Origin: Sulfurospirillum sp.
GTDB lineage: Bacteria; Campylobacterota; Campylobacteria; Campylobacterales; Sulfurospirillaceae
Length of the DNA stretch: 64,000 bases
Direction of reading: 5' to 3'
Assembly: GCA_045047115.1 (NCBI GenBank)
Contig: JASFYR010000009.1
Span: 32,001-96,000, forward strand
The notes beneath the pieces were generated by a model. The model had not been told where the DNA came from, searched no databases, and saw only the letters and a list, made by a program, of their open reading frames with translations. Both the position numbers and the translations under genes were made by a program. Below, piece after piece: positions 47,039 through 50,965 of the stretch. The number at the start of each line of letters is the position of its first letter. Within the stretch, counting starts at the first letter, position 1.

Positions 47039-47779
47039 CTATGAGTCTATCCACTCCTTTGCCGCTTTTAGCTGATTGTAGTCAAAATTTTTAACTTGGG
47101 CACTTACAAAATGACTTCCGACTTTTTCGCCTAAATCTCCGACAAAAGAGTCAGTGACAAAGGCTAGTTTTTTGATGTGCCTGTGGTGCTCTTTTATAAA
47201 TTCCATATGAGATATAAATGCTCCAAATGATTTCCATCCGGGAAAATCTTTTGTGTAGATGATGAAGCCATTTAATTTTCCGTTTTCTTCTATAAGCGGA
47301 TCTATGAGCTCTTTGGCTTCTATGAAGTCATCTTTGCTTAGAGCTTTAAGTGGTTCAAGAATCACGGTTTTTGTTTTGATATCAAATAAAATTTTTAAAT
47401 TTGGATGTAATATATCTTTTTCCAAAAGCCAAACCTTAGCTTTTTCTATATCTTCGTTGCTAAAAGTTTTTATGTCACCAGGAATTGTAAAAGAAAAGGC
47501 TTTTACAGCATCTATAATCCAGCTTATATCGCTAACAACAGCTATCTTTTCCCAAGCTGAGTAAAACATAAAACCGGCCTTGGCATCATCTATCATGGCT
47601 GAAAAGTCATAAGAATCAAAATCTTTACCCACTTGATACAACACTTTGAGCCTGCTACCTTCTTTTAGTTTTGACCGCAATGCTGGAATAAGTACTTTTT
47701 CATAATCCTCACCAACAACCTTACCACTAAGTTCAAAACCTATCACATTGTCTCCAATATCATTAAGTATCTTGATCAT
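47039..47779 (-). CDS. Tandem SpoIIAA-like (STAS/SEC14) domain protein
   Basis: Two repeats ending KIAVVSD...AKVWL and KLAFVTD...AKEWI; ATG 47779 preceded by AGGAG (ORF track starts at 47809). Confidence 0.85.
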   Translation of the reverse strand: MIKILNDIGDNVIGFELSGKVVGEDYEKVLIPALRSKLKEGSRLKVLYQVGKDFDSYDFSAMIDDAKAGFMFYSAWEKIAVVSDISWIIDAVKAFSFTIPGDIKTFSNEDIEKAKVWLLEKDILHPNLKILFDIKTKTVILEPLKALSKDDFIEAKELIDPLIEENGKLNGFIIYTKDFPGWKSFGAFISHMEFIKEHHRHIKKLAFVTDSFVGDLGEKVGSHFVSAQVKNFDYNQLKAAKEWIDS

Positions 47780-47890
47780 CTTACTTCTCCTTTCGTGTTT
47801 GATTTGCACATATCATAGCACAAAAACAGTATAATGTCTGTAATATATTGAAAATTTTACAGTATAATTTCACAAAGCTCTACATGTGGA

Positions 47891-47951
47891 GGTGATGGGG
47901 TTCGCCGTGTGATCGTTCTTCTGAACTTATAATTCCTGTAAAATAGGGGGT
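47891..47951 (+). ncRNA. Fluoride riboswitch (crcB motif)
   Basis: GGUGAUGGGGUUCGCC core; P1 GGUGA/UCGCC, P2 GUUC/GAAC, pseudoknot GGGGUU/AAUUCC (47931-47936); TATAAT at 47863 upstream. Confidence 0.8.
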
Positions 47952-47954
47952 AAT

Positions 47955-49484
47955 ATGCAGTTTTTTAGTATTCTTTTTAGGCAAAATACAAAAGTCGAAG
48001 AGCTCTCGTCTTCACTTGATTTTTATGCAGATTTAAACCTTGACCAAATCATAGAAACTGTAATTTCTTACAAAAAAAAGTTTGATATAAAGAAGTTTTT
48101 TTATATGCCACTTACCGACAAGGAGAGTATCGTATATAGGCAAGAGATTGTAAAAGATCTACAAAATAAGAAGTTTTATCTAAGGGTTGATGAGTTTTCA
48201 CATAAATTGTTAGATATAAAGAACTACCGTGATATGATAAAAGATTTGGAGTTTAAGGAGTACAAAAACGGTTGGTTTTTGCAGATGGCTATGCTCTACT
48301 GTGAGGCGTTGATGAGTTTTTATGAAATTTTAAAATCAACTGATTTACACTCACAGGGTTTACTCGCATTTTATAAATATCTACATGACTATTTGCGCAG
48401 CGATGTTTTCACCTCTTTACAAAAAAAGATGATGCAAATTAGAGAGAAATTAGACTCTATAATGTACGATGTAACGATTGATGGACTGACATTTAAAGTT
48501 AAAAAGTATGAAAAGGAGGATGATTATACTAAAGAGATAGGAGAAGTTTTTTCAAAATTTAAATATGGTATTACAAAAGCTCAAGATTGTCAGTTTGACA
48601 AAAACAGAGGCATAAATCATGTCAATGCAAAGATTTTGGAATTTGTAGGCAAACTCTTTCCTGAGATCTTCTTTGAGCTTCATGAGTTTTGTCAAAAATA
48701 TAGGGATTTTATCGATGAGACTTTTTTGACATTTTCCAACGAGATTGAGTTTTATATCTCATATCTTGAGTATATCCAAGGTTTGGAAGAGCAGGGTGTC
48801 TCATTTTGTTTTCCGCAAATAAACGAAGACAGCAAAGATATACTGATAGAAGAGGGATTTGATTTAGAACTTGCATATAGTTTGTCATTTGAGAAAAAAA
48901 GAATTGTGCCAAATGACTATTTGCTTCAAAATAGAGAGAGGATCATGGTTGTCACTGGAGCAAATCAGGGTGGAAAATCTACTTTTTCAAGAGCATTCGG
49001 ACAGATAAATTATCTAGCCAAGCTGGGTTTGCTTGTTCCTTCCAGTAGTGCAAAACTCTTTTTGGTTGATATGATATTTACTCACTTTGAAAAAGAGGAA
49101 GATATAAATACATTAAGTAGTAAATTGCAAGAAGATTTATTGAGAATTCATGCTGTTTTTGAAAAAACTACCACAAAAAGCTTGGTGATATTAAACGAGA
49201 TATTCTCTTCAACCTCTTTGCAGGACTCTTTGTATCTTAGTAAAAGAATCATGGAAAAGATAGATAAGTTGGATCTGCTTTGTATATGGGTGACTTTTAT
49301 ATACAGATTAAGCGGGATGAGTGAAAAAGCAATCAGTATGACAAGTGTAATAAATGAAAAAAATATAGAAAACCGAACCTATAAAATTATAAAAAAAGAA
49401 TCTGATGGCAGAGCGTATGCCAAATCTCTGGCCCAAAAATATCACCTAAGTTTTGAGCAAATCATAAAGAGGATAGGGATATGA
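47955..49484 (+). CDS. MutS domain-V ATPase A (MutS4-like, no mismatch-binding domain)
   Basis: DLNLDQI start, YRQEI, Walker A GANQGGKST, THFEKEED, LNEIFSST. Confidence 0.88.
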   Translation: MQFFSILFRQNTKVEELSSSLDFYADLNLDQIIETVISYKKKFDIKKFFYMPLTDKESIVYRQEIVKDLQNKKFYLRVDEFSHKLLDIKNYRDMIKDLEFKEYKNGWFLQMAMLYCEALMSFYEILKSTDLHSQGLLAFYKYLHDYLRSDVFTSLQKKMMQIREKLDSIMYDVTIDGLTFKVKKYEKEDDYTKEIGEVFSKFKYGITKAQDCQFDKNRGINHVNAKILEFVGKLFPEIFFELHEFCQKYRDFIDETFLTFSNEIEFYISYLEYIQGLEEQGVSFCFPQINEDSKDILIEEGFDLELAYSLSFEKKRIVPNDYLLQNRERIMVVTGANQGGKSTFSRAFGQINYLAKLGLLVPSSSAKLFLVDMIFTHFEKEEDINTLSSKLQEDLLRIHAVFEKTTTKSLVILNEIFSSTSLQDSLYLSKRIMEKIDKLDLLCIWVTFIYRLSGMSEKAISMTSVINEKNIENRTYKIIKKESDGRAYAKSLAQKYHLSFEQIIKRIGI

Positions 49485-50965
49485 GAGTCTTCTTGATGTA
49501 TGAAAACAAAGATTTTGTGGTTGATGAAAATTTACCAAAAAATGCTGATACGCTTATGAGTGATTTAGAGTTGAAGCCTCTGTTGGACTGTATGTCAAAA
49601 GAGGATGAATTCTTGTATGCTGTTTCAAAAAAAGCTCTGCTTTGCAGTCTGAAATCAAGAAGAAAAATCAGCTATCGCCAAGAGATATTAAAAGACTGTA
49701 TGAAAAATCCAGCTGTTACAAAAGAGCTGTATAAACTCACGATAAAATCGCTTGCAAAGAAACAGGAGAGTTGGCTTGGAGTTTTTGGCAGATACCCGGG
49801 ATCACTGCTTAGCAGTAGTGTCTCTTTGCTTGATATGTACTTTGAGCTCCTTGAAGAGTTGAGAAAAATCACAGATGAAAATATGCAAAATTTTAACTCA
49901 AGCGGATTCCAAAGATTTTTTAAGATGATTCAAAAAGAGTTGGATAATGAGTATCTTTTGCTTGTCAAAAAACATCTAAAAGAGTTGAAATTTAAAAAGG
50001 GAGTACTGCTTAGTGCAAAGCTCGGCGTGGCAAATGAGGGTGTGGACTATAGATTAAGAAGGAATAAATTAGCAACAAAAAGTTGGCTGGGAAAAATCTT
50101 GACTCCAAAGTCAAAAGAGTACTCTTTTTCACTGCATCCAAGGGACGATGCCGGGGCAAAGATACTTAGAAATCTCAGAGATGAGGGCTTAAACAAGATA
50201 GCAAATTTGCTTAGTTGTTCAGCTACCCATATAGATAATTTTTTCACTTCACTAAGAAAAGAGTTGGCTTTTTATGTAGGTTGTATGAATTTGCAGAAAA
50301 AATTGCAAGAGTTAAATTGTAACTTTGTATTTCCTGGTGTTAGATCTTTGGAGGATAAGGTTTTTTTCTCAAAAGAATTATATGATATCTCGCTTGCACT
50401 CATTAAAAATGCAAAAATCGTGGGAAATGATATAAAAGCCGATGCCAAACTGTTTTTTATAACAGGTGCAAATCAAGGGGGAAAATCAACATTTTTAAGA
50501 AGTGTAGGTCAAGCTCAACTGATGCTGCAATGCGGTATGTTTACATCAGCCCTTAGTTTTGAGGCTACTCTATGCAGCGGAGTCTTTACTCACTTTAAAA
50601 AAGAGGAAGATAGAGCTATGAAGAGTGGAAAATTCGACGAAGAGTTGGCAAGGATGAACGACATAGTGGAGTCCATCAAATCAAATGCCTTAATTTTATT
50701 TAATGAATCCTTCGCTTCAACAAATGAGATAGAGGGTTCATTGATAGCTTCGCAAATCATAGAAGCATTGGTAGAAAAAAATATCAAAGTTTTTTTTGTA
50801 ACCCACATGTATTTCCTTGCAGAAAATTTTTACAAAAAAAAGATGAAAAGTACACTCTTCCTAAGAGCAAATCGAGGCAAAGAGGGTAAAAGAAACTTCA
50901 AAATCACTCCTGCTTCACCACTCACAACAAGTTTTGCCAAAGATATATATGACTCTATCTTTTAA
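49481..50965 (+). CDS. MutS domain-V ATPase B (MutS4-like partner)
   Basis: ATGA overlap; YRQEI, GANQGGKST, THFKKEED, SGKFDEEL, FNESFASTNE, FVTH. Confidence 0.88.
   Translation: MRVFLMYENKDFVVDENLPKNADTLMSDLELKPLLDCMSKEDEFLYAVSKKALLCSLKSRRKISYRQEILKDCMKNPAVTKELYKLTIKSLAKKQESWLGVFGRYPGSLLSSSVSLLDMYFELLEELRKITDENMQNFNSSGFQRFFKMIQKELDNEYLLLVKKHLKELKFKKGVLLSAKLGVANEGVDYRLRRNKLATKSWLGKILTPKSKEYSFSLHPRDDAGAKILRNLRDEGLNKIANLLSCSATHIDNFFTSLRKELAFYVGCMNLQKKLQELNCNFVFPGVRSLEDKVFFSKELYDISLALIKNAKIVGNDIKADAKLFFITGANQGGKSTFLRSVGQAQLMLQCGMFTSALSFEATLCSGVFTHFKKEEDRAMKSGKFDEELARMNDIVESIKSNALILFNESFASTNEIEGSLIASQIIEALVEKNIKVFFVTHMYFLAENFYKKKMKSTLFLRANRGKEGKRNFKITPASPLTTSFAKDIYDSIF

Follow-up and report, generated by a model that had tools for sequence, protein, structure and literature searches.

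MutS4A and MutS4B were described as the products of adjacent genes whose stop and start codons overlap and whose function was unstudied (Lin, Nei and Ma 2007, PMC2190696). In 2010, mutS was named among the genes found downstream of crcB RNAs and was read there as a DNA-repair gene (Weinberg 2010, PMC2864571; papers are cited throughout for those parts of their text that were available). We analysed a 64,000-nucleotide stretch of a Sulfurospirillum sp. contig (JASFYR010000009.1, positions 32,001 to 96,000 of the forward strand; "the window"), in which an element resembling a fluoride riboswitch lies ahead of two overlapping genes for MutS-type ATPases, mutS4A and mutS4B. Both parts are known already, as is their association at the level of "mutS", and this locus is an ordinary, slightly decayed example. 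No function has been assigned to MutS4 since 2007, and the presence of mutS in the fluoride regulon has gone unexplained since 2010; our counts say that the two puzzles are one. An earlier note on this DNA, written from the sequence alone, had mentioned the link between MutS-like genes and fluoride riboswitches, which is in print, but had missed the family name; its description of the pair as uncharacterised holds for the function but not for the family.

We tentatively propose that the pair forms an ATP-driven heterodimeric clamp that would restore activity to proteins jammed by magnesium-fluoride-phosphate complexes, enolase being a possible client. Protein remodelling stands first in our order of readings, at rather less than an even chance, followed by ribosome splitting, a role at DNA junctions and, last, a nucleotide sensor or sink. 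The window locus is a minimal two-gene version of the system and provides a clean construct for testing.

Family and distribution of the gene pair

The stop of mutS4A and the start of mutS4B are joined by ATGA at 49481-49484, and the coordinates and overlap given in the earlier note were borne out. Both products carry Walker A as GANQGGKST. Walker B reads LVILNEIF in A and LILFNESF in B, and the switch loop WVTFI in A and FVTHM in B, just as had been claimed (Asn in Walker B of both proteins, no His in the first). Around the ATPase region the two proteins share 31% identity across 202 residues. Pfam returned MutS_V as the sole match in each and no MutS_I, MutS_II or Smr domain in either, in agreement with the claim that mismatch-recognition and Smr domains are lacking. 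Against the NCBIfam models, A and B scored 93.5 and 66.7 bits for MutS1 (cut-off 480), 60.8 and 68.5 bits for MutS2 (cut-off 400) and 63.6 and 79.5 bits for KamC (cut-off 300), and both proteins stop after the ATPase region.

Two accessions entered as MutS4B in a published supplement (WP_064074690.1 and WP_051590080.1; Kim 2017, PMC5742357) were found to be the second genes of two pairs that we had retrieved with protein A (L014 and L017). We built a quick tree from 96 ATPase-domain rows, including 14 MutS1, 14 MutS2 and 12 KamC sequences, from which two ABC-transporter sequences caught by the Walker-A pattern had been dropped (row L130_2 is an A protein labelled B by the motif pattern). Window B fell into a 25-row clade (SH-aLRT 97) with the second genes of L014 and L017, and window A into a 25-row clade (99) with the genes upstream of them. 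The A and B clades grouped together with support of 99, apart from the MutS1, MutS2 and KamC rows, which places the pair in a clade of its own in the kind of MutS phylogeny that the earlier note had proposed. Because the two genes are adjacent with a stop/start overlap and group with published MutS4B accessions, the pair is, by sequence, a member of the MutS4A/MutS4B family.

The window pair shares the overlap, the grouping with listed MutS4B and the patchy distribution of the published family, and differs in two respects: both MutS4 papers assume a role in DNA metabolism and make no fluoride link in the text seen, and the Kim 2017 list, as far as available, contains no Campylobacterota, the phylum of the window pair. 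We found the pair in 2 of 301 genomes of the window's class, in 14 of 401 genomes from the phylum of a record titled Bacillota (G301; "the second phylum" below) and on 45 of 72,556 plasmids at E 1e-30. By our filter, mutS4B came after mutS4A in 66 of 68 loci; of the remaining two, one has a frameshifted B and the other a partial one. A search of the ESM Atlas gave only unnamed clusters and MutS-type rows. Two apparent A-B fusions (P0124 and P0177) have lost the C-terminal motifs of A, look like frameshifted gene calls and were discarded as evidence. Frameshifted copies were also seen in L014:6255-7890, where mutS4A on a Rubrobacter plasmid is annotated as two pieces, and in L020:2513-3954, where mutS4B lies in two frames.

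Fluoride riboswitches accompany MutS4 across phyla

We collected 80 metagenomic loci, the best 80 of 706 matches, using patterns that include the Walker-B Asn, and searched them for riboswitches with our own model R1, built from 18 Rfam-passing aptamers. Of the 65 loci with at least 400 nt of upstream sequence, 41 had a same-strand riboswitch no more than 500 nt ahead of mutS4A, and 55 had a riboswitch anywhere in the locus. After near-duplicates had been collapsed, the riboswitch was found within 500 nt in 38/61 and within 4 kb in 48/61, against an expectation of 0.038 for such a window given the riboswitch density of the loci themselves, and anywhere in 52/61. Among the 15 mutS4A genes of the 401-genome sample, 11 had a riboswitch within 500 nt (one just under the cut-off), three had one at 1.6-3.1 kb and one had none; no riboswitch was found near any of the 28 mutS1- and mutS2-sized genes of the same 14 genomes. 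Over-cut-off riboswitches occurred in 14/14 genomes with the pair against 21/80 of the first 80 genomes without it, a comparison in which the second count was made with stricter filters and related genomes are not independent. All six plasmid loci that were read carried a riboswitch, and their neighbours were of the fluoride type, for example crcB, eno, a DHHA2 pyrophosphatase-like gene, universal stress protein (USP), cation:proton antiporter and CLC genes.

The riboswitch linkage of MutS4 thus spans phyla and places the family with fluoride defence. The earlier note had tied the pair to fluoride stress and not to mismatch repair, and both the counts around the genes (38/61 loci and 11/15 genes, against 0/28 for mutS1 and mutS2) and the co-occurrence of riboswitch and pair across genomes agree with it. 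Set beside the published RF01734 regulon, the window shares the aptamer architecture, the ON logic and a downstream mutS, and MutS4 loci share the neighbour set of crcB, eno, ppaC, gpmA-like, USP, antiporter and hydrogenase-like genes. The window copy differs in that it scores below the cut-off, looks translational and precedes the MutS4 pair alone. Our literature search found no paper tying MutS4 by name to fluoride or testing such a tie; most subscription papers, Baker 2012 included, were outside its reach.

A second enolase tracks the pair

We found that a second enolase of the fluoride-island type tracks the pair and is unlinked to it in this genome. Among 107 loci of unequal length, with each neighbour cluster labelled by one representative, enolase adjoins the pair in 23. 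Two enolases were present in three of the four pair-bearing Campylobacterota genomes (G000, which is the window genome, G136 and G304; G303 has one) and in none of 11 genomes of the same family without the pair; for the second phylum the figures were 6/14 with the pair and 5/80 without. In the window genome the second enolase stands alone on contig C8 (L184:4344-5684), and no riboswitch was found at it. In a quick tree it grouped with enolases of MutS4 fluoride islands (SH-aLRT 98) and not with the genome's own housekeeping copy. This pattern fits either a co-acquired regulon or a client relationship.

A degenerate fluoride aptamer in the leader

No match to RF01734 was obtained in the 64-kb window at the Rfam gathering threshold of 34 bits. 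The Infernal search by E-value, also proposed earlier, gave one match of 24.5 bits (E 5.4e-5 in a 221-nt search) where a crcB-type aptamer had been claimed (47891-47936); across the 2.14-Mb genome it was the best of three matches (E 1.2e-4, the others 0.107 and 0.205). With model R1, the window copy reached 29.5 bits in a search of 815 kb (E 5.6e-6). In 18 related aptamers, with the window copy excluded, 9 of 13 pairs showed double changes (0/500 shuffles). The closest named orthologous loci, L008 and L009 (Campylobacteraceae metagenome-assembled genomes; A 72-73% identical), carry canonical aptamers of 43.8 bits at the same position, and the window element therefore descends from a real riboswitch. 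The claimed origin stands, but the copy itself is sub-threshold and maybe weakened or dead. The features of the locus are collected in Table 1.

Table 1. Features of the mutS4 locus (window coordinates).
Feature	Position	Strand	Remarks
Divergent gene, two SpoIIAA-like domains	47039..47809	-	Pfam SpoIIAA-like; belongs to a block that two genomes of the same genus lack
TATAAT hexamer, candidate -10 box (inferred)	47863..47868	+	Read in the sequence; identical hexamer at the matching place in orthologous locus L008
Degenerate fluoride riboswitch aptamer (RF01734)	47882..47945, core 47891-47938	+	24.5 bits, below the Rfam cut-off of 34
Predicted hairpin masking the Shine-Dalgarno (SD) sequence	47932..47951	+	AUUCCU 47932-47937 (3' pseudoknot strand) with SD region GGGGGU 47946-47951
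mutS4A (ORF A)	47955..49484	+	509 aa; MutS2-like core/lever/clamp arm and ABC ATPase, Walker-B Asn, His-to-Phe switch loop
mutS4B (ORF B)	49481..50965	+	494 aa; fold as mutS4A, Walker-B Asn, His retained; ATGA overlap with mutS4A

To judge by its letters, the window aptamer looks like a worn, degraded copy of a fluoride riboswitch. Three bases at near-invariant positions are rare among 99 distinct related aptamers (G47911 0/99, U47928 0/99, U47933 1/99; the column matching U47928 holds 68 G and 31 A), counts that are biased toward canonical letters because the 99 were picked by a model from canonical copies near homologues. P1, P2 and six pseudoknot pairs are still possible (two pairs being G-U), and the linchpin A47929/U47937 is retained; its U corresponds to U48, the residue needed in the B. 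cereus fluoride riboswitch (PMC8752731). Folding of the whole aptamer was no better than that of shuffles (z -0.05 to -0.45), as expected because the folder cannot form the pseudoknot.

The copy may be dead or leaky, so that the pair would be expressed here without fluoride control, whatever the proteins do. The sub-threshold score, the three rare substitutions and three related Campylobacterota loci that have no riboswitch all point this way, as does U47933, which weakens the pseudoknot and the SD-masking hairpin alike. We nevertheless consider loss of control a serious minority possibility, since P1, P2, the six pseudoknot pairs and both linchpin bases can all still be formed and U48 is among what has been kept.

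In the window, the SD-masking hairpin was calculated at -4.7 kcal/mol (z -0.95), with 38 of 200 shuffles equally good. The orthologues gave -9.1 kcal/mol (L008, z -3.41) and -8.2 kcal/mol (L009, z -2.52), clearly beyond chance. This difference between strong orthologous hairpins and a weak one here suggests that the lineage ancestrally had a translational ON switch, which may be weakened in the window copy. The earlier note had drawn the SD-hiding pairing as UUCCUGU/AUAGGGG; its ON logic is upheld for the lineage by L008 and L009, but the pairing is weak in the window and its register slightly shifted. The linchpin U lies about 17 nt from the start codon. A scan of 47700-48100 found no plus-strand promoter by consensus and no terminator, and hence no transcriptional platform was seen. 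To judge from the orthologue leaders and the known fluoride switch, fluoride would lock the pseudoknot, free the SD and let both coupled genes be translated, very probably so in the family and probably, with less assurance, in the window copy.

Two other leaders and RNA genes stood out. The aptamer ahead of mutS4A in L065:7792-7897 carries several tandem copies of a short unit of about 15 nt in its P2 region, and in L010:10202-10788 a tmRNA gene near a second fluoride riboswitch is overlapped by a group I intron-like match (48.4 bits against a cut-off of 50).

A rebuilt nucleotide site

The substitutions on which the earlier note remarked, Asn for the Walker-B Asp in both proteins and the missing His in the first, are present but are traits of the family and not of this locus. 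Walker-B Asn-Glu was found in 64/64 A and 120/121 B homologues. The switch His is replaced by Phe in 64/64 A and is retained in 119/121 B homologues, and a further His is invariant at A377/B371, where MutS1 has Arg. Lys occupies A390/B384 in 64/64 A and 117/121 B, where MutS1 and MutS2 have Thr, and the pair has Gly-Lys in place of the Ser-Thr or Ser of MutS1, MutS2 and KamC. All 40 MutS1, MutS2 and KamC rows keep both the Walker-B Asp and the His.

The E. coli MutS variant D693N has an empty metal pocket, binds Mg weakly and ATP less well, and has a steady-state ATPase that is intact or higher (PMC2857095). Because this variant stays active, the Walker-B Asn need not mean a dead ATPase, and A and B are plausibly active ATPases of low Mg affinity.

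A nucleotide site that is rebuilt, and invariant, in both subunits would also suit a sensor or sink, which would close on ADP-metal-fluoride or another nucleotide built up under fluoride and signal to, or energise, a major facilitator superfamily (MFS) transporter, a USP or a dynamin-like GTPase. Genes for all three recur near the pair (MFS 30/107, USP 22/107, dynamin-like GTPase in at least 13 loci). No neighbour is obligatory, however, as the pair stands without them in the window genome, L007 and L008, and some 115 kDa per ion appears implausible for a stoichiometric sink. We regard this as the least probable of the readings.

Predicted fold and heterodimer

AlphaFold2 models of A and B (pLDDT 86.9 and 93.8) could be aligned over 386-416 residues to the MutS2 core. 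The earlier description of the proteins as stripped-down domain-V ATPases fits the Pfam result but falls short of the models, which span that core. With a wide structure aligner, the best match was the MutS2 core 9kce for both A (Z 27.5, root-mean-square deviation 4.2, 386 residues) and B (Z 28.1, 5.8, 390 residues). Foldseek, unlike the wide aligner, ranked MSH2, MSH3 and MutS1 chains at the top, so that the two methods differ on the nearest solved relative. Compared with MutS2/RqcU cores (9kce, 7vuf, 7qv3), the modelled pair shares the core/lever, clamp and ABC ATPase and the lack of a mismatch/connector domain. It differs from MutS2/RqcU in being a predicted heterodimer without the coiled-coil/KOW/SMR tail, in its Walker-B Asn, in having Gly-Lys for the Ser-Thr signature and in forming a separate clade in the quick tree.

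Fluoroaluminate inhibits EF-G, and the pair might, when induced by fluoride, split ribosomes: a MutS2-like core lacking the KOW/SMR collision sensors would clear those stalled by metal-fluoride-trapped translation GTPases. The best structural matches are MutS2 cores, among them the B. subtilis chain bound to a disome (Z 26.4 for A, 23.7 for B), and in MutS2 it is the ATPase that splits disomes and KOW/SMR that recruit (Park 2024, PMC10897456). We consider this unlikely. MutS2-sized genes are already present in 14/14 genomes, Pfam finds no recruiting domains in A or B, and no ribosomal or translation genes occur among the recurrent neighbours scanned. In addition, A's clamp shows conserved acids and nothing that clearly matches the basic residues conserved in the clamp of MutS2.

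When A and B were predicted together, the complex scored an ipSAE of 0.61, against 0.01 for the best of three controls. The mark used for this score was reached by 116 of 157 solved pairs and 2 of 215 mismatched pairs. Runs agreed on at least 89% of contacts, with a partner pLDDT of at least 80. The confident contacts all lie in the arm/clamp (chiefly A 166-234 and B 173-257, with a shared sheet A171-175/B175-180), and none of them joins ATPase head to ATPase head. A and B are thus predicted to form a heterodimer joined at the clamp tips, in support of the asymmetric heterodimer for which the earlier note had suggested a structure prediction.

At similar divergence, A's arm has 6 conserved Lys/Arg where that of MutS2 has 15, and it is slightly acidic; the shortage of basic residues argues weakly against nucleic-acid binding. 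This bears on the view that MutS4AB, like MutS2 or MSH4-MSH5, clamps DNA junctions and deals with recombination or damage secondary to fluoride stress. The MutS2 core/clamp does bind junctions (PMC12292046), mutS in the fluoride regulon was taken as a DNA-repair gene (Weinberg 2010), and a MutS4 operon placed in M. smegmatis gave 55 against 22 putative recombinants, with longer tracts (Kim 2017). That assay was small and heterologous, and the source island carries an enolase and a hydrogenase-like complex, both of which occur as neighbours in the fluoride loci here; the word fluoride is absent from the paper as far as its text was seen. None of the recurrent neighbours in the scan is a DNA-repair gene. 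We therefore place a DNA-junction role below ribosome splitting, as a decidedly improbable alternative.

Proposed function

The pair lacks a mismatch domain and in 14/14 genomes stands alongside MutS1- and MutS2-sized genes; it thus replaces neither and, on these sequence grounds, is not a mismatch-repair system. KamC is an approximately 500-residue MutS-like ATPase without DNA-recognition or Smr domains whose name implies action on a poisoned enzyme. NCBIfam NF052383 names this stripped MutS-like ATPase as a reactivase, a precedent by name alone. MutS4 is far under the KamC family cut-off and has a different gene context; KamC keeps the Walker-B Asp and the His in 12/12 copies and groups with MutS2 in the quick tree, with MutS4 in a separate clade.

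The reactivation mechanism that we tentatively favour starts from the observed family identity, gene coupling and riboswitch linkage across phyla, and continues with the fluoride-dependent translation described above. A and B would then join at the clamp tips through the predicted shared beta-sheet, leaving the ATPase heads free to open and close. The rebuilt nucleotide site would bind Mg weakly and so resist trapping by ADP-metal-fluoride, and, since MutS sites are usually arranged in trans, the one that draws on B's His may be the stronger in hydrolysis. In the last and weakest step the substrate would be a poisoned protein, by analogy with KamC; we weakly favour a jammed protein over a free ion complex as the target, where the earlier note had suggested that the pair may clear metal-fluoride phosphate analogues.

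Several points weigh against reactivation. Of the 14 pair-bearing genomes, eight have a single enolase, the island enolases do not form one clade (8 changes), and joint acquisition of a single regulon explains the enolase link just as well. Three of six Campylobacterota loci (L007, L012 and G136) have no riboswitch ahead of the pair, and the window copy is degenerate. The fold does not single out MutS2, as MSH6 lies within about 1.5 Z of it and MutS1 is also close, and the complex score may reflect likeness, since MutS dimers have already been solved. B's arm has 12 conserved Lys/Arg, near the 15 of MutS2, and the net arm charge is little different. The quick tree does not make MutS4 the sister group of KamC, and the pair scores 63.6 and 79.5 bits against the KamC cut-off of 300. 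The sole published experiment with a MutS4 operon reports more recombination (PMC5742357), and E. cloacae FRM is highly fluoride-resistant through an operon without MutS among its listed genes (PMC5533749). A fluoride phenotype and a substrate for the pair are both putative.

A stronger form of the proposal, which we hold to be rather unlikely as a whole, is that MutS4AB is a dedicated "fluoride reactivase", hinged at the clamp tips and with sites immune to trapping, that strips Mg-fluoride-phosphate from enzymes such as enolase. With the same reserve, such a reactivase might constitute a third arm of fluoride defence, target repair beside export and overproduction, spread horizontally through both bacteria and archaea under the mistaken annotation of mismatch repair. 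If the pair does repair fluoride-poisoned enzymes, fluoride defence would gain a mechanism of a new kind, one that matters for organofluorine bioremediation and for the reading of plasmid fluoride islands, and the published recombination role of MutS4 would be recast.

Neighbouring genes and locus layout

Besides the enolase, MFS, USP and dynamin-like genes mentioned above, recurrent neighbours in the 107 loci were cation:proton antiporter (17), crcB (11), histidine phosphatase (10), DUF190 (10), P-type ATPase (9) and Mrp/hydrogenase-like membrane subunit (8) genes. This set matches the published fluoride regulon (PMC11139923, PMC5533749). One cluster of 14 loci (L022:5127-6587) lies on the strand opposite enolase genes and was rejected as a shadow frame. 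A 24-locus "dynamin" cluster was also set aside, as it had been chained together from dynamin-like and DUF6062 proteins (28 of 32 members rescanned).

In the window genome, crcB is on contig C32 (L004:1465-2188), directly 3' of a DUF190 gene and behind an acyltransferase-like gene, and no riboswitch was detected at that locus. Two CLC matches are on contigs C15 and C30, and the window is on C9, consistent with the earlier observation that it holds no Fluc/CrcB or CLC-F gene. Because the genome carries its own crcB, the pair need not be standing in for an exporter.

In two genomes of the same genus (G075 and G165), the flanking HI0933-like gene and dnaE are separated by no more than about 250 nt, which implies that a 4-kb block with the pair is present here and absent there. 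A tandem SpoIIAA-like (STAS/SEC14) gene accompanies the pair in two Campylobacterota loci, the window (47039-47809) and L007:7810-8550, and was not found in the other MutS4 loci examined; the L007 copy is 66% identical and lies downstream and convergent, whereas the window copy is upstream and divergent.

As the paper describes it, the M. yongonense MutS4 island (OEM_51290-51410) matches fluoride islands in gene content; it is not recognised as one in the text seen (Kim 2017). Dynamin-like GTPase genes, often with DUF6062 (fused-looking in L023), stand beside MutS4 pairs in L023, L032, L035, L038, L060, L066, L072, L074, L084, L119, L120, L123 and L125. Finally, genes for small proteins (about 105-290 aa), some of them with zinc-ribbon and HEAT matches, lie near the pair in L028, L031, L039, L050, L066, L072, L073, L119, L125 and L129.

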